A DNA stretch of 64,000 nucleotides from an uncultured Clostridia bacterium (lineage in GTDB: Bacteria > Bacillota > Clostridia > DUPQ01). Location: NCBI GenBank assembly GCA_963766335.1, contig CAVXZA010000002.1, positions 928,292-992,291 of the forward strand. The letters are read 5' to 3'. The notes below the pieces were generated by a model, which did not search any database, was not told the origin of the DNA, and saw nothing but the letters and a program-made list of their open reading frames with translations. Shown here in pieces: positions 3,596 to 39,281 of the stretch. A program made the translations under genes and the position numbers. Each line of letters starts with the position of its first letter. Positions within the stretch are counted from its first letter, which is position 1.

Positions 3596-4846
3596 ATGAA
3601 AACCAAAGCGGTAAGATTATATGGTAAAAACGACCTGAGGCTCGAAGAATTTGAGCTTCCGGAAATAAAGGATGATGAAATCCTGGCGAAAGTAGTTACG
3701 GACAGCATCTGCATGTCTTCATATAAAGCGGCATACCAAGGTCCGGATCATAAGAGGGTGCCCAATGATGTTGCGGAAAATCCAATAATTATCGGGCATG
3801 AAATGTGCGGTGAATTGGTGCAGGTTGGCAAAAAATATGAAGGGAAGTTCCACGAAGGTCAGCGATTCAGTCTCCAGGCTAATATAAATCATCCGGATCT
3901 GCCGTATGCAGCTCCGGGTTATTCATTTAAATACGTAGGTGGTAATGCACAGTATATTGTGATTCCAAAAGAAATCATGGAAATGGATTGTCTTCTTATT
4001 TATAGCGGTGCCTCATTTTTCCAGGGATCGCTGGCAGAACCTGTTTCCTGTATTATCGGTGCATTCCATGCTATGTATCACACGAAGATGGGCAGCTATG
4101 TGCATCATATGGAAATAAAGGAAGGCGGAAACATGGCCATACTTGCCGGCGTCGGCCCAATGGGTTTAGGAGCTATTGATTATGCTGTTAACCAACCTAT
4201 CAAACCAAAGAAACTAGTTGTTACTGATATAAATGACGCACGACTAGCCAGGGCAGAGGAAATTTACTCAAAAGAATGGGCGGCTTCACAAGGAGTTGAC
4301 TTAGTCTATGTTAATACTGGTACTGTTGATAATCCTGTTTCATACCTCAAATCACTGGTTGACGGCGACGGATATGACGATGTATTCGTTTTTGCTCCCG
4401 TAAAACCTGTAATAGAGCAAGGAGATGCAATACTTGGCCTTGACGGATGCTTGAATTTCTTTGCAGGACCTACAGATAAGCAATTCAGCGCGACATTTAA
4501 TTTTTATAATGTACATTATGCAGCAACTCATGTAGTAGGAACCAGTGGCGGTAATACTGAGGATATGAAGGAAGCCCTTGCTATGAGTGCGTCGGGACAA
4601 TTGAATCCCGCGTCAATGGTCACGCATATCGGCGGCCTTGACAGCGCAGCTGAAACAACCCTCAACCTTCCTAATATTCCTGGTGGGAAAAAACTGATTT
4701 ATACAGGGATAAAAATGCCTCTTACTGCAATTGATGATTTTGAGAAAGAGGGATATCCTGAACTTGCGGTAATATGCAAAGCCAATAAAGGTTTATGGTG
4801 TAAGGAAGCAGAGGACTATCTTCTTGAGCATTCTGAAAAAATCTGA
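3596..4846 (+). CDS. zinc-binding alcohol dehydrogenase family protein, L-sorbose-1-phosphate reductase-like
   Basis: The N-terminus MKTKAVRLYGKNDLRLEEFELPEI, the motifs SICMSSYK and GHEMCG, and the Rossmann motif GVGPMG support the family. GGAGG lies 6-7 nt before the ATG at 3596. Confidence 0.7.
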   Translation: MKTKAVRLYGKNDLRLEEFELPEIKDDEILAKVVTDSICMSSYKAAYQGPDHKRVPNDVAENPIIIGHEMCGELVQVGKKYEGKFHEGQRFSLQANINHPDLPYAAPGYSFKYVGGNAQYIVIPKEIMEMDCLLIYSGASFFQGSLAEPVSCIIGAFHAMYHTKMGSYVHHMEIKEGGNMAILAGVGPMGLGAIDYAVNQPIKPKKLVVTDINDARLARAEEIYSKEWAASQGVDLVYVNTGTVDNPVSYLKSLVDGDGYDDVFVFAPVKPVIEQGDAILGLDGCLNFFAGPTDKQFSATFNFYNVHYAATHVVGTSGGNTEDMKEALAMSASGQLNPASMVTHIGGLDSAAETTLNLPNIPGGKKLIYTGIKMPLTAIDDFEKEGYPELAVICKANKGLWCKEAEDYLLEHSEKI

Positions 4847-4961: not shown

Positions 4962-5171
4962 AATCGAAATGCAGGAATTAAAAATAAATATTGCATTGAT
5001 TTATCTATTTAGTTGATTAAAGCGGTGAATTATGCTAATATACCATAAAAAGATGCAAGGATTCTTTTTTTTACATTCATTTTCGCATGATTAATCGGGC
5101 GGGAACCGTGCAGTCAGTCAAATTGCGGCTATGGATGTATTAACTAAATTTGGGATATATTGGAGGGGAAT

Positions 5172-6815
5172 ATGATTCAGTATCAGAAGAGCAATGACGT
5201 TTTGAATACCATTAACCGCGGAAATCCGGCAGAGTCCGGTTTGTGTACACTGTGCAGGGCGGACTGCAAGGGAAAATGCGAAACATGGACATCGGCAATG
5301 AAAGGAAGGAAACTTCTTTATCCCAGGGATTTCGGAGCTGTTACAGCCGGAAGTTCAAATATAAATCATGTAGGCGTATGCTATACAAATCTTAGAATAC
5401 AGGGATATCACTACGGGGCATTTGGACTGGCAGAAGGCCTGTCAAATAATGCCGATGATTGTATATTTCCCAATGTAAATATTGAGTCGCGGTTCGGTAA
5501 AAATGAGAAAACTAAAATTCGGATGCCGCTGATGACCGGAGCATTGGGTTCGACGTTCATAGCTGAAAAATACTGGGACTCTTTCGCTATAGGAGCTGCA
5601 CTGGTTGGCATTCCGATTGTTGTCGGTGAAAATGTTGTCGGTGTTGATAAAAAGTCCGTAATAGAAAACGGCAGGATAAAATCAGCCCCGGAACTCGACC
5701 GCAGGATTGATACTTACCTTAAGTATTATGATGGCTATGGTGCAATAATAGTTCAGATGAATGTTGAGGATACCAGAAACGGCGTTGCGGAATATATTAT
5801 CGATAAGTATGGTGATAAAGTTGTTATTGAACTTAAATGGGGCCAGGGGGCCAAAAACATCGGCGGTGAAATCCAGGTAACTAATCTGCAGTATGCCATG
5901 TTCCTTAAAGAAAGGGGTTACATAGTAGATCCTGACCCTACCCGACCCGAAATTCAATCCGCATTCTTATCCGGATCTATAAAATCTTTTGCAAGGCACA
6001 GTAGGCTTGGGTATACGCACCTTAATTCATTCGAAGAAGTCAGGGATGATTTTTATAAAAGCATTAAATATCTCAGATCCCTTGGGTACAAAAAAATCAC
6101 ATTGAAAACCGGAGCCTATGGAATGGAAGGTCTTGCGATGGCTATAAAACTCGCTACAGAAATGGAACTTGACCTTCTGACTGTAGACGGTTCCGGCGGC
6201 GGGACAGGCATGAGTCCATGGAATATGATGGAATCCTGGGGTGTTCCTTCTATCTTTCTTCATTCAAAAGCGTATGAGTATGCAAGGATGATGTCATATA
6301 AATCATCCGAGGTTGTGGACCTGGCATTCGCAGGTGGACTTGCAAATGAGGACCATATATTCAAGGCAATGGCTCTTGGCGCTCCTTATACAAAGCTTGT
6401 ATGTATGGGCCGGGCTCTGATGATACCCGGTTTCCTCGGTTCTAACATAGAAGGGGTTTTCAATCCGGATAGACGCGAGAAACTGAATGGAAACTGGACT
6501 GAACTTCCAAAAACGATAACAAGTGAATACGGAAACTCGCCGGAAGAAATATTTGCAGGGTATTACGATGTTAAAAGCAAAGTAGGCTCAGAGGGTATAA
6601 ACGATATACCTCTTGGAGCAATAGCATTCTGGAGTTTAGCTGACAAACTTGCTGCCGGTCTTCAGCAGCTACTGGCAGGCGTAAGGAAATTCAATATTTC
6701 TGAAATCAGAAGAAGTGAACTATTTTCTGCAAACCGCGATACAGAAAGAGAAACAGGTATCCGTTTCATGACAGATGTAGCTGATGATATTGCTAAAGAG
6801 ATATTAAATTCATAA
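5172..6815 (+). CDS. FMN-binding glutamate synthase family protein (GltB domain-2-like)
   Basis: It has an N-terminal Cys cluster (CTLCRADCKGKCETW), the motifs DGSGGGTG and FAGGL, and a TIM-barrel FMN fold pattern. GGAGGGG precedes the ATG at 5172. Confidence 0.7.
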   Translation: MIQYQKSNDVLNTINRGNPAESGLCTLCRADCKGKCETWTSAMKGRKLLYPRDFGAVTAGSSNINHVGVCYTNLRIQGYHYGAFGLAEGLSNNADDCIFPNVNIESRFGKNEKTKIRMPLMTGALGSTFIAEKYWDSFAIGAALVGIPIVVGENVVGVDKKSVIENGRIKSAPELDRRIDTYLKYYDGYGAIIVQMNVEDTRNGVAEYIIDKYGDKVVIELKWGQGAKNIGGEIQVTNLQYAMFLKERGYIVDPDPTRPEIQSAFLSGSIKSFARHSRLGYTHLNSFEEVRDDFYKSIKYLRSLGYKKITLKTGAYGMEGLAMAIKLATEMELDLLTVDGSGGGTGMSPWNMMESWGVPSIFLHSKAYEYARMMSYKSSEVVDLAFAGGLANEDHIFKAMALGAPYTKLVCMGRALMIPGFLGSNIEGVFNPDRREKLNGNWTELPKTITSEYGNSPEEIFAGYYDVKSKVGSEGINDIPLGAIAFWSLADKLAAGLQQLLAGVRKFNISEIRRSELFSANRDTERETGIRFMTDVADDIAKEILNS

Positions 6816-17036: not shown

Positions 17037-17672
17037 ATGAAATTTGAAAACTTGGAACAAAGGGTGCTAGAAGCGAAAAGCAATCCTGATGAGATGAACA
17101 GATTAATTGAGGAATATGTCCCGTTCATCCGAAAAACAGCTGTGAAGGTTGTTCCTCCGGGAGCATATGACAGTTTCAGCACTACCGCAATGTCGGCATT
17201 TGCCGAGGCGATTGAAAAGTTCCGCGAGAATGAGGGCAGGTTTCTTGGATTTGCATCGCTGGTAATAACCAATAGGGTAAAAGACCAGGTGAGAAAAGAA
17301 TTCAAACCAAATGAATTACCCAGCGATGATATTGAAATCGAGGTAACCTTTGAGGATAAGACCGACAGGAAAATAGAGGTTGATATGTTCAGGGACGAGT
17401 TAACGGTTTATGGAATTTTACTGGATGACTTGTTGAAGAACAGCCCTAAACACAAAGGCAGCAGAAAAAAAGCCAATGCAGCTGCCCAAACCTTGTCGGG
17501 AAGTGAATTTTTATTCAATATTCTAAGAGAGACAAAAAAAGTACCTGTTAAGAAATTGAGCGAAATATCAGGGATTGCGGAAAAACTTATAGAACAAAAA
17601 AGGAAATATATAATCGCCGGAGCATTGCTCAGGCAAACGAAATATTCATACTTAAAAGAATTTATTAAATGA
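17037..17672 (+). CDS. sigI: RNA polymerase sigma factor SigI
   Basis: LLKNSPKH, KRKYIIAG and FAEAIEKF match B. subtilis SigI landmarks (LLENSPKH, RKYIIA). The gene is translationally coupled to an RsgI gene. GGAGAG precedes the ATG at 17037. Confidence 0.85.
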   Translation: MKFENLEQRVLEAKSNPDEMNRLIEEYVPFIRKTAVKVVPPGAYDSFSTTAMSAFAEAIEKFRENEGRFLGFASLVITNRVKDQVRKEFKPNELPSDDIEIEVTFEDKTDRKIEVDMFRDELTVYGILLDDLLKNSPKHKGSRKKANAAAQTLSGSEFLFNILRETKKVPVKKLSEISGIAEKLIEQKRKYIIAGALLRQTKYSYLKEFIK

Positions 17673-17683
17673 GGTGCGACTCA

Positions 17684-19033
17684 ATGAAAGGCATACTAAT
17701 AGAAAAAAGAACACGGAAGTCCGTGGTAATGGATCAAAATGGAAGATTCGTGAAAACAAAAACCATGAGAGGGTGGAATGAAGGCGAAGAAGTTAGTTTC
17801 ATGAGCGGTGCTGTTAAAACTGCAAGAAACCTCTCTATTGCCGCTGCATTTGTCTTTGTTTTAGCTCTGGGTTTATTTGCTGTATATACCGGAAATGCAT
17901 ATACAGTATATCTTGATGTAAATCCATCTATTGAAATAGAAGTAAATGCATTTAATAATGTATCATCAATAAAGGCGTTGAATGATGACGCGGAACAGAT
18001 CGGCGACCTTGATAGTCTGGTCGGCTTGAAATTCGGACCGGCTGTAAATGTAGCGATACAGTTGCTTCTTGACGAAGGTTACCTGGATGAAGATGGTACC
18101 GTTGTACTTTCAATCACAGGGAAAAACGGTAAACTGAAGACTGTTGAAAGAGAGGTTTCCGAAGCGTTGTCAGGGATTGAGATTGAAACAGAAGATGATG
18201 AGGATGAACCGGAAGAGGCGGATGTTGAAGACGGAGAACCCAAACTCAAAGTATATATCGGCAGGGTAACCGAAGAAATGGCAGCCGCCGCAGAAGAACT
18301 TGATGTACCAATCGGAAGGATTGTTTTGGCAGCAAAGGCACAGGAGGAAGGGGCTGACATTTCTTATGAAATGGCTTCATTGCTCAGTGTCCAGGAGTTG
18401 CAGAGAATCAGGAATTTATCAAAGACTATTAATAAAGCAACAGACTTACTGGCCGGAGTTTCAGCTCAGGGACAGGAAAACGGGAATAGTAATATGAAGC
18501 AAGTTGAAGCCATGACAAATAAGATTCTCAGGGAGGCTGCTAAAATTGAAGGAAATCTTGCTGAATTAGAAGCATTGATTGCAGCGGGTGAAGCTGACGA
18601 TGAAATGATTGAAAGACATGCGGTTCTCACCATTCAGCTTGAAAGTCTTTTAACGAAAATGGAACAAATGGGAATTGCAGCTGATAATGAGACCGAAGAA
18701 ATTATAACAGGAATGGCTCAGTACAAGGGCGCAACACCTGAAGAGAAGGCTAGGATTCGGGAAGAAATAAAAGAAGCGAAAAAGGCCGATAATGATGCCA
18801 AAAAGGAAGAAAACCGTACCAGAGTCGAAGAAAAGATGGAAGAAGTAAAGGCTAAAGTTGCAGCATTGAAAGCCGCAAAGAATAAATCCGAAGACGAAGG
18901 CCCGGAAAATGCAGGGGATAATGCCGGCGATAACGCAGGCGATAATTCCAGCGACAATAGCCCGGGGAATTCAGGAAATAATGCCGGAAACAATGCCGGA
19001 AACAATGCCGGGGGAAATGGAAACGGCAACTGA
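17684..19033 (+). CDS. rsgI: anti-sigma-I factor RsgI, with a coiled-coil and low-complexity extracellular tail
   Basis: The N-terminal RsgI domain is MKGILIEKRTRKSVVMDQNGRFVKTK...GEEV. It is followed by one TM helix (LSIAAAFVFVLALGLFAVY) and a juxtamembrane domain (YLDVNPSIEIEVN). An acidic tract, E/K/A-rich helices and G-[DN]-N-A-G repeats follow. Confidence 0.85.
   Translation: MKGILIEKRTRKSVVMDQNGRFVKTKTMRGWNEGEEVSFMSGAVKTARNLSIAAAFVFVLALGLFAVYTGNAYTVYLDVNPSIEIEVNAFNNVSSIKALNDDAEQIGDLDSLVGLKFGPAVNVAIQLLLDEGYLDEDGTVVLSITGKNGKLKTVEREVSEALSGIEIETEDDEDEPEEADVEDGEPKLKVYIGRVTEEMAAAAEELDVPIGRIVLAAKAQEEGADISYEMASLLSVQELQRIRNLSKTINKATDLLAGVSAQGQENGNSNMKQVEAMTNKILREAAKIEGNLAELEALIAAGEADDEMIERHAVLTIQLESLLTKMEQMGIAADNETEEIITGMAQYKGATPEEKARIREEIKEAKKADNDAKKEENRTRVEEKMEEVKAKVAALKAAKNKSEDEGPENAGDNAGDNAGDNSSDNSPGNSGNNAGNNAGNNAGGNGNGN
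18907..19030 (+). repeat. in-frame 15-nt (pentapeptide) tandem repeats at the 3' end of rsgI
   Basis: This region encodes ENAGDNAGDNAGDNSSDNSPGNSGNNAGNNAGNNAGGNGNGN. The unit aataatgccggaaac/aatgccggaaac is repeated almost exactly. Confidence 0.8.
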
Positions 19034-35224: not shown

Positions 35225-36355
35225 ATGGAAAATGTATCAGATAAGAATACAAAGCAGTTTCCCTGTGGTTCCTGCGGGGCAGCCGCGGTTTTCGATCCGG
35301 AAAGCCAGGCGCTAAAATGCAGTTACTGTGGTTCCATTACCCAAATTGATGAAATAGATGAAGAAATTCTTGAACATGATTTCAGGACCTCTCTTGACCA
35401 CGAACCAAAAGAAAAGTGGCAAGGCGAGACAAAAGTAGTGCGATGTGAGAACTGCGGCGGCCAAACTGTGCTGGAAGATTCTGCAACAGCCGATAAATGT
35501 AATTTCTGCGGGTCGCCCCATGTTGTCAGCCTCTCTGAGTTCTCTGGGATTAAACCGGAATCCCTTATTCCGTTCAGGATTTCTCGAAAGCAAGTAAAAG
35601 CACTATTCAAAAAATGGATATCGCGAAAACCTTTTGCACCACGGTCATTAAAAAAAGAATACAGGGGAGATAAGATTAACGGAATATATATACCATACTG
35701 GACATATGATTCCGACAGTTTCACAGCATATTCAGCAGAGGCCGGTACTTATTACTATGTAACACAACACTATACAGTCATGGTGAATGGAAAGCCTCAG
35801 AGAAGAACGCGGCAGGTCCGTAAAACCCGGTGGAGGCCTGTAAGCGGGACGTACGACAGGTTTTTCAATGACCTGCTTGTCAATGCATCCAATAGCAACA
35901 ATCGTAGGATGGTCGAAGGAGTAGAACCTTTTAGACTTGAAGGCCTTGTTGGCTACAAACCTGACTATCTATCAGGATTTGCAGCCGAAAGGTATGCAGT
36001 GCCCCTTGGCGACGGCTGGAACATTGCCCGTGATGAGGCTGTCCGTATCCTGCGGCAGGAGATAACAAGAAAAATTAATGCCGACGAGGTGCGAAACCTC
36101 AGATTAAGGACATCATACTCAGACATAAAGTTCAGACATACCCTTTTTCCCCTTTGGATTTCCTCATACCGGTATAGAAACAAGTCGTTCAACTATATGG
36201 TAAACGGCCAGACCGGGCGTTTCAGCGGGAAAGCCCCTGTCAGTGCGATAAAGGTTTTCCTGACCGTGGTAATAACCATCGCGATAATCATCCTTGCAAT
36301 ATATCTGCTCAGGGAATCAGGATTGCTTGAAGGCAGTACTACCTATACTTATTAA
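35225..36355 (+). CDS. double zinc-ribbon protein with a C-terminal membrane anchor (YdjG-like)
   Basis: It has CGSCG...CSYCGS and CENCGG...CNFCGS ribbons, a domain of about 230 aa, and a C-terminal TM helix (VFLTVVITIAIIILAIYLL). Confidence 0.55.
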   Translation: MENVSDKNTKQFPCGSCGAAAVFDPESQALKCSYCGSITQIDEIDEEILEHDFRTSLDHEPKEKWQGETKVVRCENCGGQTVLEDSATADKCNFCGSPHVVSLSEFSGIKPESLIPFRISRKQVKALFKKWISRKPFAPRSLKKEYRGDKINGIYIPYWTYDSDSFTAYSAEAGTYYYVTQHYTVMVNGKPQRRTRQVRKTRWRPVSGTYDRFFNDLLVNASNSNNRRMVEGVEPFRLEGLVGYKPDYLSGFAAERYAVPLGDGWNIARDEAVRILRQEITRKINADEVRNLRLRTSYSDIKFRHTLFPLWISSYRYRNKSFNYMVNGQTGRFSGKAPVSAIKVFLTVVITIAIIILAIYLLRESGLLEGSTTYTY

Positions 36356-36474
36356 AATTACCATACAAACTGAAATTAAATAAAATCCCATGGGATAGGT
36401 TTTTATTTAATTTGTATTGTTACCGGTTTATTTAGGCGGGTATAAATTAAGCAAGACGTTAGGAGGCAATAAAA

Positions 36475-36990
36475 ATGGTTAGTGAGAGTATTTTAAAATT
36501 ATTAAATGAGCAAATAAAAAAAGAACTGCATTCTGCATATGTATATTTGGGTATTGAGGCATATCTGGCAGACCTTGGTCTCAAGGGAATGGCCAATTGG
36601 TTCAGGGTACAAACCCAGGAAGAACTTGACCATGCGATGAAATTCTTCGGATATGTTAATGAAGTGGGTGGACTGGCGCAGCTTGGTACCATTGAAGAAG
36701 TTTCTACATCTTATGAAACACCGCTTGCAGCTATGCAGGCAGCCCTTGATCATGAAAGATATATTACCGGTGAAATTTACAAGATAGTAGACGCCGCGGT
36801 TGAAGAAAGAGATCATAAGACCAATTCTTTCTTAAAATGGTTCGTAGACGAACAGGTAGAAGAAGAAGCCAATGCAGAAGACAATGTAAAAAATCTGGAA
36901 TTGGTTAAAGACAGTCCCAACGGTGTATTCATGATTGATCGTGAAATGGCATCACGAGTTTATGTGCCGATGGCAGCCGAACCCGCTTAA
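36475..36990 (+). CDS. non-haem ferritin
   Basis: LNEQIKKELHSAYVYLGIEAY...QEELDHAMKF are ferroxidase-centre residues. AGGAGG serves as the RBS. Confidence 0.85.
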   Translation: MVSESILKLLNEQIKKELHSAYVYLGIEAYLADLGLKGMANWFRVQTQEELDHAMKFFGYVNEVGGLAQLGTIEEVSTSYETPLAAMQAALDHERYITGEIYKIVDAAVEERDHKTNSFLKWFVDEQVEEEANAEDNVKNLELVKDSPNGVFMIDREMASRVYVPMAAEPA

Positions 36991-37007
36991 TAGGAATATT
37001 TTATAAA

Positions 37008-37035
37008 TGGAAAGACCGCAGGAAGCGGTCCTTTT
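37008..37035 (+). terminator. rho-independent terminator
   Basis: GACCGC-aggaa-GCGGTC followed by CTTTTCC. Confidence 0.6.
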
Positions 37036-37145
37036 CCTTGCAAAAAAAGATTAAGCTGATGCAAATTGGAATTTGTCTAATTGCATTAAAGATAAAACTT
37101 GGGGAAAAGTTAAAGACAATATAGAATATTATGAAGATAAACATA

Positions 37146-37174
37146 TAGACATCTTGTATAAGATATTGTACAAT
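37146..37174 (+). promoter_or_regulatory. promoter candidate for tRNA-Pro
   Basis: TAGACA (37146-37151), a 17-nt spacer and TACAAT (37169-37174), 17 nt before the tRNA 5' end. Confidence 0.45.
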
Positions 37175-37190
37175 TTATTTCGCACGGCCT

Positions 37191-37267
37191 CGGGATGTGG
37201 CGCAGTTTGGTAGCGCACCTGGTTTGGGACCAGGGGGCCGCAGGTTCGAATCCTGTCATCCCGACCA
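37191..37267 (+). tRNA. tRNA-Pro (anticodon TGG)
   Basis: I folded the cloverleaf by hand. The acceptor stem is CGGGATG/CATCCCG and the D arm is GCGC/GCGC. The anticodon arm is CCTGG-TTTGGGA-CCAGG and the T arm is GCAGG-TTCGAAT-CCTGT. CCA is encoded. Confidence 0.9.
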
Positions 37268-37275
37268 TAAAAAAA

Positions 37276-37767
37276 GGAAAGCTCTTGCTTTCTTTTTTTT
37301 ATGGTCCGGGGATGAATAACAAAATAGTGGCTGTAAGTTTTGACGTAAGATGCGTACCGGAGGACGCAGTCCGAGGAACGCATTGACAGTCAAAACTGTA
37401 AAACGGCAAACAGGGTTATTCCCCGCTCAGGAAAGCTCTTGCTTTCTTTTTTTTATGGTCCGGGGATGAATAACAAAATAGTGGCTGTAAGTTTTGACGT
37501 AAGATGCGTACCGGAGGACGCAGTCCGAGGAACGCATTGACAGTCAAAACTGTAAAACGGCAAACAGGGTTATTCCCCGCTCAGGAAAGCTCTTGCTTTC
37601 TTTTTTTTATGGTCCGGGGATGAATAACAAAATAGTGGCTGTAAGTTTTGACGTAAGATGCGTACCGGAGGACGCAGTCCGAGGAACGCATTGACAGTCA
37701 AAACTGTAAAACGGCAAACAGGGTTATTCCCCGCTCAGGAAAGCTCTTGCTTTCTTTTTTTATGGTC
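37276..37767 (+). repeat. tandem array of three identical 154-bp units plus a 30-bp partial fourth
   Basis: Units begin at 37276, 37430, 37584 and 37738, and copies 1-3 are identical base for base by eye. Each unit is a GAAAGC-tctt-GCTTTC hairpin with T8, followed by a 116-nt imperfect palindrome. The palindrome stems are GGG..GAATAAC/GTTATTCCCC, GTTTTGAC/GTCAAAAC, GATGCGT/ACGCATT and CGGA/TCCG. Confidence 0.95.
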
Positions 37768-37810
37768 GGTTTATATTATATCCGTCTGATATTTTGTTGA
37801 AAATTTGTTA

Positions 37811-38203
37811 TTACTTAAAAACAAAGATTCGATTGAGAAAATATCCGGTTCCTGTATAGAATACCATACCGATAATAACTCCCGGTGTTTCATTGATTCC
37901 GGCCAGGTCAATAAGAAGGTATTGCAGAAGCTGTGTAAGAATTAGTAATGAAATTGTTACAGTCAGGAATTTTAGCAGTTGGCTGCCTGCGTTTTTATCA
38001 CTTTTTCTAAATGTGAAACGGCGGTTTAGTAAAAAACTTACAGTAATCCCGACTGCATATCCCGCCAGGGTATATAAAGCATAGTGAATGCCTGTCAGCT
38101 TCAGCAAGAATATTACTGCTGCAGTGACGCCGGTGTTAACCAATCCCACCATTCCGTATCTCAGCATAGTATAAAATTCTTTAAGAATTTTCTTTCTGTC
38201 CAT
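37811..38203 (-). CDS. GtrA family membrane protein
   Basis: YGMVGLVNTGVTAAVIFLL...LNRRFTFRK and four TM segments. Confidence 0.75.
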   Translation of the reverse strand: MDRKKILKEFYTMLRYGMVGLVNTGVTAAVIFLLKLTGIHYALYTLAGYAVGITVSFLLNRRFTFRKSDKNAGSQLLKFLTVTISLLILTQLLQYLLIDLAGINETPGVIIGMVFYTGTGYFLNRIFVFK

Positions 38204-38288
38204 ATAGGTAATTATATACTAAAACATTGAATTGTAGATATAATTAGAAGATAATAGAGCTTAACAGAGCCAACCGGAAAGAAGAGTA

Positions 38289-39281
38289 ATGAAAAAAACA
38301 TTATTAATAATATTATCCATAATAATGGTTGCTGCCTCAGCCTGCAGCATAAAAAACAAAGAGCCGTTATCAAGGACAGGTTTTCATCTTGGTACAATAG
38401 TAACAGTCACATTATACGGTGGAAACGGCGAAGAATCCCTTGACAAGGTCTTTGAAGAGATTGAGCGCCTGGAGTCAATATTATCTAAGCATGTTGAGGG
38501 CAGCGACATACAAAAAATAAATGCCGCAGCCGGTGTTGATTCTATAGAACTGCAGCCTGAGACAATAGTGGTTCTTACCCAAAGCACCAGATATTACGAA
38601 ATAAGCAAAGGTTATTTTAATATAACCGTAGGTCCATTGGTTAGTTTATGGGGGATTGGCACTGAAGATGCGGCCGTGCCTTCTGAAGACGATCTTGCAG
38701 CTGCATTGGCAAAAGTGAATATGGATGAATTTATATTCTGTTGCGACACAGCCGAACTGCTTAAACCGGGAATGTCAATAGATACCGGGGGCATTTCAAA
38801 AGGTTATATTGCCGATAAAGTGGCGGAAATTATAAAAGATGAAGAATGTATAGGCGCAATCATTAATCTGGGTGGAAATGTGCTGGCAGTGGGTAAAAAA
38901 CCGGACGGCAGCAAATGGAAAATCGGTATTCAGGACCCGTTTGAAGCAACGGGTGAATATAGGGAAGTTGCAGAAATCGGAGAGATGTCTGTTGTAACCT
39001 CGGGTCCGTATGAACGCAATTTTGAGGAAAATGGTGTTGTTTACCATCATATAATTGATCCATTTACAGGATATCCTGTTGTAAATGAAATTGCAGGTGT
39101 TACGATAATCAGTGAAAAGTCCATAGACGGTGATGGACTGTCGACGTCGGTTTTTGCAATGGGAACCGAGGCTGGGCTTGAATTAATAGAAAATATAGAA
39201 AATACCGAGTGCTATATTGTTCTTGACGATGGGTCATCAATAATGTCTTCAGGTTTCGGAAAGTATATAGTTCTAAATTAA
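38289..39281 (+). CDS. apbE: FAD:protein FMN transferase (ApbE) lipoprotein
   Basis: It has a lipobox (AASAC) and the motifs HLGTIVTVTLYG, GGISKGY and HHIIDPFTGYP. Confidence 0.85.
   Translation: MKKTLLIILSIIMVAASACSIKNKEPLSRTGFHLGTIVTVTLYGGNGEESLDKVFEEIERLESILSKHVEGSDIQKINAAAGVDSIELQPETIVVLTQSTRYYEISKGYFNITVGPLVSLWGIGTEDAAVPSEDDLAAALAKVNMDEFIFCCDTAELLKPGMSIDTGGISKGYIADKVAEIIKDEECIGAIINLGGNVLAVGKKPDGSKWKIGIQDPFEATGEYREVAEIGEMSVVTSGPYERNFEENGVVYHHIIDPFTGYPVVNEIAGVTIISEKSIDGDGLSTSVFAMGTEAGLELIENIENTECYIVLDDGSSIMSSGFGKYIVLN

Follow-up and report, generated by a model that had tools for sequence, protein, structure and literature searches.

A covarying hairpin repeated in tandem behind tRNA-Pro in uncultured Clostridia, a candidate structured RNA of the tRNA trailer

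A 154-bp unit that is repeated three times directly behind the tRNA-Pro(UGG) gene of an uncultured Clostridia bacterium (DUPQ01) raises the question of whether such an array is a set of small RNA modules, a DNA element, a by-product of terminator duplication or an error of assembly. The array is contained in a 64,000-nt stretch of genomic DNA (GenBank assembly GCA_963766335.1, contig CAVXZA010000002.1, positions 928,292-992,291 of the forward strand), hereafter the window, and was first described in an earlier note on this DNA as three copies, starting at 37276, 37430 and 37584, of a terminator hairpin followed by a long irregular hairpin. Direct comparison of the three units found 0 mismatches, and Tandem Repeats Finder reported a single array at 37275-37767 (period 154, 3.2 copies, score 979). 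Each unit consisted of a terminator-like hairpin with a T-run, then ATGGTC, then an irregular hairpin of 119 nt, hereafter the element. Judging from alignments with related loci, this hairpin is maintained by compensating mutations in related uncultured Clostridia. We propose that it is a structured RNA in the trailer of tRNA-Pro, in the same sense as the tRNA, transcribed by read-through, ended by its own terminator and amplified through the terminator repeats, a reading that we regard as plausible and a little short of an even chance.

The core of the first unit (37307-37425) folded at -46.1 kcal/mol with z = -6.0, and none of 200 shuffled sequences folded as well. RNAalifold, run on six sequences, recovered the long hairpin of the earlier note, with 13 of its 26 pairs changed on both sides (0/500 shuffles), and sliding the pairing partners against each other lowered pairing from 87% to 35-44%. 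A refined structure of 33 pairs, in which stem P2a was added and the alignment comprised seven distinct sequences from six lineages, had 18 pairs compensated on both sides; 82% of its cells were paired, compared with 35-42% when partners were slid, and 0 of 500 shuffles reached any of these measures. The check for covariation of paired positions that had been proposed for this hairpin was therefore positive. P2a itself varied widely in sequence while remaining paired, being GCUGU/ACGGC in the window, ACCAU/AUGGU in locus L086, GUCAU/AUGAC in L097 and GUUGC/GCAAC in L088 (related loci are cited by number throughout).

The element comprised the ATGGTC leader, a P1 stem with a 3-nt bulge, stems P2a and P2b, a 4x4 loop, a P3 stem with an A.A mismatch, and an apical mini-hairpin with a GNA triloop. 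An apical hairpin had been expected from a CGGA/TCCG pairing; the hairpin is present, but the comparative data favored a different pairing, CC/GG followed by GGAC-GCA-GTCC. Conservation extended beyond the pairs to the leader TGGTC, the 3-nt bulge (A/C)TG followed by AA, the symmetric 4x4 loop (5'-GNNA/5'-GANA), GTACC/GGAAC with its A.A mismatch, GA(C/A)AG, and TGAA of the bulge region, and the apex was variable (10-120 nt). Such conservation of loops speaks against a palindrome that only arm-to-arm correction maintains. Elements of relatives were 58-70% identical to that of the window, compared with 36-57% for the third codon positions of gtrA, the convergent gene beyond the array, so that the element is more conserved than near-neutral sites and is under purifying selection. 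Even the diverged duplicates of two relatives (L096a/b and L097-1/2) still kept the structure.

Relatives were located through GtrA homologues of 83-93% identity and then through their contigs, with gtrA as the anchor. Homologous elements occupied the same place and orientation, in the sense of the tRNA and after the tRNA-Pro 3' end and its terminator, in at least six related uncultured Clostridia. A single element was found in L086 (GtrA 92%), where the contig ends after it, and two diverged copies in L095 (GtrA 88%). L088 and L089 (GtrA 88%) carried a full element and a truncated one, with one more repeat junction in L089 than in L088. Two copies were present in both L096 (GCA_033720075.1; GtrA 90%; spacing 149-154 bp, 97% identical, each with its own hairpin) and L097 (GtrA 85%; spacing 264-265 bp, 88-94% identical, with an apical insertion of ~110 nt). 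Half or decayed elements were found in L087 and L099-L101 (GtrA 93% and 83%), and L090-L094 and L102 (GtrA 86-89%) held another short piece with an inverted tRNA-Pro-like T-arm. A covariance model (R1), built from six element sequences, recovered all of these elements and found nothing further in 234 kb of loci, nor in the 64-kb window with filters off. Multiple copies thus recur in at least four lineages. Variation in copy number, which the earlier note had put forward as a check among strains, was seen among relatives by direct-repeat search (L089 compared with L088; L096; L097), which detected two-copy arrays that Tandem Repeats Finder missed. In L097, hip genes lay between the elements and gtrA, and the elements still followed directly on a copy of the tRNA-Pro 3' end and a terminator; the constant linkage is therefore to the tRNA side and not to gtrA.

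Each 154-bp unit can be read as a gene-like module, made up of a rod-shaped RNA of ~120 nt and its own hairpin-U8 terminator. No sigma-70-like site was found inside the unit, as the earlier note had also reported, and the promoter-like site in front of tRNA-Pro (TAGACA/TGGACA-17-TACAAT) also occurred upstream of tRNA-Pro in L096, L097 and L088. A T-run in the sense of the tRNA followed the hairpin behind every unit, and did so in L096 as well. We postulate that the promoter-less modules would be transcribed from the strong tRNA-Pro promoter by read-through of the tRNA terminator and then of the later terminators, so that the resulting transcripts would be nested and carry one, two or three elements. 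Together, the tRNA 3' end and the leader make up a 27-bp duplex, at which a double-strand-specific RNase could naturally cut and so separate the tRNA from its trailer, and the level of the RNA would then follow the activity of the tRNA promoter, i.e., growth rate. The rod, with its GA-flanked loop, A.A mismatch and bulge, would most likely bind a protein or another RNA, and several copies of the element would add dose or valency.

The orientation of the proposed RNA was suggested by folding, as the tRNA-sense strand had the lower energy and the better z-score in 6/6 homologues; by the paired columns, in which G.U outnumbered A.C pairs by 11:7 and 19:10; and by apical loops of the form C-G(A/C)A-G, which make a GNA triloop on the tRNA-sense strand in four lineages. 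Of the options listed in the earlier note, a structured RNA is therefore the one favored by covariation, by constant tRNA-sense position and by the asymmetry of folding, and its expression by read-through remains conjectural. Several observations weigh against this reading. The strand evidence is a trend, given that the G.U/A.C counts are non-significant and that the six homologues span five independent lineages. The hairpin of the tRNA terminator is very strong (-38 kcal/mol with A7/U8), so read-through may be rare. The element is lost or truncated in L087, L088a, L090-L094 and L099-L102, and is therefore dispensable. A hairpin working as single-stranded DNA would be expected to show covariation just as much. 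Finally, the window (guanine-plus-cytosine [GC] content 41.6%) showed a positive GC skew throughout and had the majority of its genes on the plus strand, which makes plus the leading-strand sequence, so that it is exposed on the lagging-strand template.

That template strand is one of the features that would suit a DNA-level hairpin, a selfish or recombination palindrome, REPIN- or MITE-like (miniature inverted-repeat transposable element) or of the att type, which folds as single-stranded DNA and multiplies in an integration hot spot at tRNA-Pro. It would also fit the hypervariable gap between tRNA-Pro and gtrA, with hipBA-like and XRE cassettes in L005-L007 and L097, the 21- to 28-nt direct repeats of the tRNA 3' end in L009 and L097, which resemble att scars, and the leader of the element, which repeats the tRNA 3' end in inverted form. 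The occurrence of truncated and half elements, the apical insertion of the L097 copies and the fact that apical mini-hairpins of the GCGAAGC type are very stable in DNA too can be counted on the same side. We nevertheless consider a DNA-level role unlikely. No second locus was found in the window (filters off), in the 234 kb of loci or in plasmid, phage and viral collections, and divergence of the element roughly tracked host divergence at one orthologous site. The flanks were the 31-nt repeat of terminator plus ATGGTC and not a target-site duplication of 2-10 bp, no transposase or integrase was found nearby, and the internal loops and bulge were conserved, not "perfected" as arm-to-arm correction would have it. 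A MITE- or ERIC-like element, offered earlier as an explanation, thus found no support within the window or the loci of relatives. Highly unlikely, in our estimation, is a function of the opposite strand, in which the hairpins would either make up the 3' untranslated region of gtrA and, like REP hairpins, stabilize its mRNA, or belong to an RNA derived from a tRNA, with an acceptor-like stem, GACCA at its 3' end and the bidirectional terminator in common with tRNA-Pro. Read on the minus strand, all elements ended in ...CC(G/C)GACCA(T/A), which resembles the tRNA-Pro 3' end TCATCCCGACCA, and loci with the short piece held an inverted tRNA-Pro-like T-arm fragment GGACAAGTTCGAATCCTGTC; only the hairpin nearest the tRNA had a T-run on that strand, so that gtrA transcripts should cross the whole array, into which a promoter-like site at 37803-37775 is also directed. 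However, this strand folded worse in 6/6 homologues, the L097 elements are not downstream of gtrA, a gtrA terminator precedes the elements in L096, and the promoter-like site was not conserved. Neither ARAGORN nor the Rfam tRNA model recognized the element, and its similarity to the body of the tRNA was marginal (9/500 shuffles scored as high).

It is decidedly unlikely, though less easily dismissed for copy number than for the hairpin, that the array has no function of its own and is a terminator region duplicated by slippage, in which the most that four terminators in a row would do is shield gtrA from antisense read-through out of a very active tRNA gene, the hairpin being a passenger. The zero divergence between copies points to a very recent event, the 31-nt flanking repeats would ease unequal crossing-over, extra terminators are plausible insulation between convergent genes, and the element is dispensable in several lineages. 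Compensatory change nevertheless keeps the hairpin, which has diverged less than synonymous sites across lineages in which the third positions of gtrA approach saturation; the diverged duplicates L096a/b and L097-1/2 keep the structure; and multiple copies occur in at least four lineages. Neutral duplication or stacking of terminators is accordingly possible for the number of copies and not for the hairpin, so that the neutral slippage product entertained in the earlier note is refuted as far as the hairpin itself is concerned and may hold for the amplification to three copies. An assembler that expanded a single unit, also raised at that time, is extremely improbable, even though the copies are perfectly identical and short-read contigs of the same species break in or just short of the array (L001, on the gtrA side, ends in it; L003 and L004, on the ferritin side, stop inside the tRNA gene). 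Short-read contigs usually break at repeats. A Joint Genome Institute (JGI) metagenome contig (Ga0316198_10108889; L002) runs from unit 1 into unit 2 with identical sequence, and is independent, coming from another strain of the same species that differs, over the 200 bp upstream, by two single-nucleotide polymorphisms and a 2-nt indel. As it crosses a unit junction, at least two tandem copies exist in nature and the tandem arrangement is real. In addition, the tandem copies of relatives are diverged, and hence cannot be artifacts, and the length of the source contig (2.45 Mb) suggests long reads.

No described family matched the element, and it is probably an undescribed structured RNA on the tail of a tRNA. 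An Rfam cmscan of positions 36000-39000 (E<=10) and of seven related loci (E<=1) returned tRNA and noise only, in line with the lack of any resemblance to a known RNA family noted earlier. BLAST of the unit against plasmids and phages gave no match, nor did a 20-mer and a degenerate pattern of the conserved core in viral contigs. A 22-mer pattern scan of public genome contigs also gave no match, a weak negative given that the scan returned no record of this species, and a 20-mer scan of metagenome contigs gave one chance match (L085, a coding region of 67% GC), which is likewise weak, because the scan missed the L002 contig that contains the 20-mer.

Several named identities were considered and set aside. 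The unit had been described as free of open reading frames (ORFs) longer than 4 codons; on the contrary, each unit carried ORFs of 33-43 codons on both strands, including an ATG-started ORF of 39 codons, whose peptides were absent from a collection of 15 billion proteins. A small protein gene was rejected, as no ORF was conserved, the frames of L088 and L097 met a stop 3-5 codons past the conserved ATGAA, and the only matches to the L096 ORF came from its own species. A 63-codon ORF at 37195-37386, running from tRNA-Pro into the first unit, is annotated publicly as a protein (NCBI/ENA) and is almost certainly spurious. A tRNA or degenerate tRNA copy was not supported, with ARAGORN and Rfam calling tRNA-Pro only and the alignment to it matched by 9 of 500 shuffles. 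For a T-box, suggested by a UGGU leader facing ACCA and by the GGUAC core, there was no T-box match, UGG was unconserved on the relevant strand and no gene lay downstream; a riboswitch with terminator failed in a similar way, for want of a consistent downstream gene in the sense of the tRNA (gtrA is convergent, and the hip genes of L097 have their own promoter). An integron attC site was excluded by the requirement for RYYYAAC/GTTRRRY, as the window has AATAAC/GTTATT and relatives AACGAC/GTCGTT or CAAT/ATTG, and no integrase was found nearby. The antitoxin array of a type III toxin-antitoxin system should have a gene for a toxin endoribonuclease behind it in the same orientation, whereas the next gene is the convergent gtrA. 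CRISPR and retron were set aside by inspection only, their defining features being absent. As for internal promoters, the ATGGCA-17-GATAAT sites of the L096 copies were not conserved in the window.

The terminators suggest how the array arose. The 27-bp palindrome around the first hairpin pairs the tRNA 3' end TCATCCCGACCAT-A7-GGAAAGC with GCTTTC-T8-ATGGTCCGGGGATGA; its A tract, given as A8 in the earlier note, is A7 (37269-37275). A terminator-like site on the minus strand lies within this hairpin (37292-37277), which is the only one of the array hairpins with T-runs on both strands and can therefore act as a bidirectional terminator. The incomplete fourth copy, said to break off after the terminator and ATGGTC, did so after a match of 31 nt (GGAAAGC-tctt-GCTTTC, T-run, ATGGTC) in which T7 replaces T8, with divergent sequence thereafter, and looks like the original right-hand copy of the 31-nt repeat. 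Joined without the array, which sits between ATGGTC and GG, CCGACCAT-A7-GGAAAGC-tctt-GCTTTC-T7-ATGGTCGG would form an almost perfect palindrome, of the kind usual where convergent genes share a bidirectional terminator. The 31-nt repeat of terminator plus ATGGTC flanks every element, and we infer that unequal homologous recombination or replication slippage between these repeats recently multiplied the element to three copies, which would explain the 154-bp period, the partial fourth copy with T7 and the differences in copy number among relatives. That the copies are identical, and identical also in a second strain, implies that amplification or homogenization was recent. From the comparison of relatives, the element itself is shown to be old and selected at the tRNA-Pro locus, only its amplification being recent. 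The promoter-like site on the minus strand between the array and gtrA, outside the units, had no counterpart in L086, where the gtrA stop is only ~20 nt away from the element, or in L096, where a gtrA terminator intervenes, and because of this lack of conservation it is probably a chance match. In this strain it might nonetheless give rise to antisense transcripts of the array.

Table 1. Features of the tRNA-Pro locus and its array, in window coordinates.
Feature	Position	Strand	Basis and remarks
tRNA-Pro promoter-like site, TAGACA-17-TACAAT	37146..37174	+	sigma-70-like match
tRNA-Pro(UGG), CCA encoded	37191..37267	+	ARAGORN; Rfam tRNA model, 69.3 bits
27-bp palindrome centered on the first terminator loop	37256..37315	.	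inverted repeat; -38.2 kcal/mol, z = -8.2
Whole array, three identical units and 31-nt partial unit	37276..37767	+	repeat finding and direct comparison
Structured element, copy 1	37301..37428	+	R1, 114.7 bits, E = 1e-24; fold; covariation
Terminator-like hairpin 2, AGGAAAGC-tctt-GCTTTCTT and T-run	37429..37454	+	-9.0 kcal/mol; no minus-strand T-run
Structured element, copy 2, identical to copy 1	37455..37582	+	direct comparison; R1
Terminator-like hairpin 3	37583..37608	+	terminator scan
Structured element, copy 3, identical to copy 1	37609..37736	+	direct comparison; R1
Terminator-like hairpin 4, T7 and ATGGTC (partial fourth unit)	37737..37767	+	comparison; terminator scan
Promoter-like site, TTTTCA-17-TATAAT	37775..37803	-	points into the array; just past the gtrA stop codon
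gtrA (GtrA/DPMS transmembrane family), convergent with the tRNA	37811..38203	-	Pfam PF04138, E = 5.9e-24

The neighbors of the array encode ordinary cellular proteins, mostly metabolic enzymes. Upstream, genes for a nucleotidyl transferase, a PP-loop ATPase, an SPFH protein, a zinc-ribbon protein and ferritin precede tRNA-Pro and the array, and past the array gtrA is followed by ApbE, a PfkB kinase, a formyl transferase and an FAD oxidoreductase. The closest GTDB-representative genomes, metagenome-assembled genomes of uncultured Clostridia and Bacillota (ferritin 74-78% identical), kept the gene order on both sides and had different DNA between tRNA-Pro and gtrA, a gap that in L005 and L007 held a small XRE-type (hipB-like) gene and then a second gene, and in L006 an XRE gene. 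Judged by this gene content, the tRNA-Pro/gtrA gap is a variable hot spot. Cargo was located at L005:4700-7290, L006:4705-5644, L007:4706-7687, L097:3400-5300, L088:3488-6555 and L096:3940-5732, and HipA/HipB-like toxin-antitoxin genes or XRE regulators sit between tRNA-Pro and gtrA in this clade. In L088 and L096 an MBOAT gene preceded by an ORF of 185 aa was found beside tRNA-Pro, lying in L088 between the tRNA and ferritin and being followed there by a DHHW-domain gene; in L096 the MBOAT gene is cut off by the end of the contig. Perfect direct repeats of the tRNA-Pro 3' end, ~120-145 bp apart, were present in L097 (28 nt, 5821-5848 and 5966-5993) and L009 (21 nt, 4822-4842), enclosing a small insert with its own terminator, and the long elements of L097 start after the second copy. 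These repeats look like the scar of an integrative element that targets the tRNA 3' end.

The short piece mentioned above replaced or accompanied the long element in several lineages (L091:1130-1185, L093:1030-1085, L102:2075-2111, L009:4745-4800, L097:5870-5925). It consisted of a conserved ACGCATGCCCCAC, a hairpin of 6-7 bp with a variable 5-nt loop (CTCGG, CTTCA, CTGCG) and the T-arm-like GGACAAGTTCGAATCCTGTC, which nearly matches the tRNA-Pro T-arm, inverted. Neither ARAGORN nor Rfam called it as a tRNA, and it may be a decayed inverted copy of tRNA-Pro. The apical insertion in the L097 copies (5566-5797 and 5303-5532) was itself structured, with a GGTGCCAATAACTATGTCAC/GTGACATAGTAATCATGGCACC hairpin and a GTTTCTTTTAGAAAC hairpin, and contained CTGTGGTAC, an inverted near-copy of the core GTACCGCAG; it may be a nested partial element. 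Also in L097, a 55-bp unit repeated 1.9 times (5109-5214) overlapped a perfect TTGACA-17-TATAAT promoter upstream of the hip genes, and may be a duplicated operator or promoter. Elsewhere in the window, 12-nt tandem repeats of the AATGCAGGCGAT and GGAAACAATGCC types (18908-19016) encode the low-complexity (NAGD)n...(NAGN)n C terminus of a 454-codon ORF (17669-19033).

Among known systems, the array resembles in layout the tyrTV locus of Escherichia coli, where a small RNA, RttR, is released from the trailer of a tRNA transcript, rttR being described as processed from the tyrT transcript (bioRxiv 10.1101/2024.07.17.603846). When checked, E. coli MG1655 had an array of 3.1 copies of a 178-bp unit (95% matches), and this array overlapped rttR as well as the tyrV 3' end. 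In both cases ~3.1 tandem copies of a 150- to 180-bp unit lie on the same strand directly behind a tRNA gene. The likeness is one of layout only, as there was no homology of sequence or structure and an Rfam search that included the RtT family was negative. In the E. coli unit the final ~19 nt of the tRNA recur as a direct copy, alongside a small ORF (tpr), whereas the window unit has an intrinsic terminator, no conserved ORF and an inverted copy of 6-14 nt of the tRNA end, carried imperfectly as ATGGTC(CGGGGATGA), with no direct copy in the window; its copies are identical, compared with 95% in E. coli. The promoter-less small RNAs RrA, RrB and RrF, which lie between the dual terminators of E. 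coli rRNA operons, are similar in the order of tRNA, terminator, element and terminator on the plus strand, in the lack of a promoter inside the unit and in conservation among relatives. They too share no homology with the element, which differs in being a module present three times behind a single tRNA in a Clostridia host, and the likeness does not imply binding of Hfq or CsrA.

Functional RNA can also derive from a tRNA trailer in the form of 3' external transcribed spacer (3'ETS) RNAs, such as the 3'ETS-leuZ sponge of E. coli. Those RNAs lie before the operon terminator and are short and largely unstructured, whereas the element lies after the terminator and forms a long rod. REPIN/BIME, Correia and ERIC sequences resemble it as imperfect hairpins of 100-150 nt between convergent genes near a terminator, with compensatory pairing and truncated copies. 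They are, however, dispersed in tens to hundreds of copies, the MITEs among them with target-site duplications, whereas the element has one known locus, with which it was apparently inherited, and is repeated head to tail with a terminator in each unit. Type III toxin-antitoxin (ToxI-like) loci likewise have tandem direct repeats of a structured RNA ending in a terminator, but with units of ~34-45 nt followed by a toxin gene on the same strand, in contrast to units of 154 nt followed by convergent gtrA.

A wider proposal, which we hold tentatively and with more doubt than confidence, is that the elements form a new family of rod-shaped RNAs of 120-230 nt, tied to the tRNA-Pro trailer in a clade of uncultured Clostridia, repeatedly amplified and acting as a growth-rate-coupled, multivalent sponge for a protein or RNA. 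The family would be marked by a bulged P1, a GA-flanked 4x4 loop, an A.A mismatch and a GNA-triloop apex, and in Gram-positive bacteria it would correspond to RttR and RrA/B/F, with a fold of its own. Few units of a cell are transcribed as strongly as its stable-RNA operons, and the DNA behind their terminators is usually ignored. The terminator repeated on both sides of the element offers a clean example of what can drive changes in copy number. Should the element work as DNA, it would single out a particular hairpin structure bound to an integration hot spot at a tRNA. If it is an RNA as proposed, it would provide a compact new RNA fold to study. RttR and RrA/B/F indicate that promoter-less small RNAs can ride on stable-RNA operons, and the Clostridia element would then be a third, unrelated case, clearly backed by covariation and recurrently prone to tandem duplication, pointing to "trailer RNAs" coupled to tRNA and rRNA promoters as a general device.

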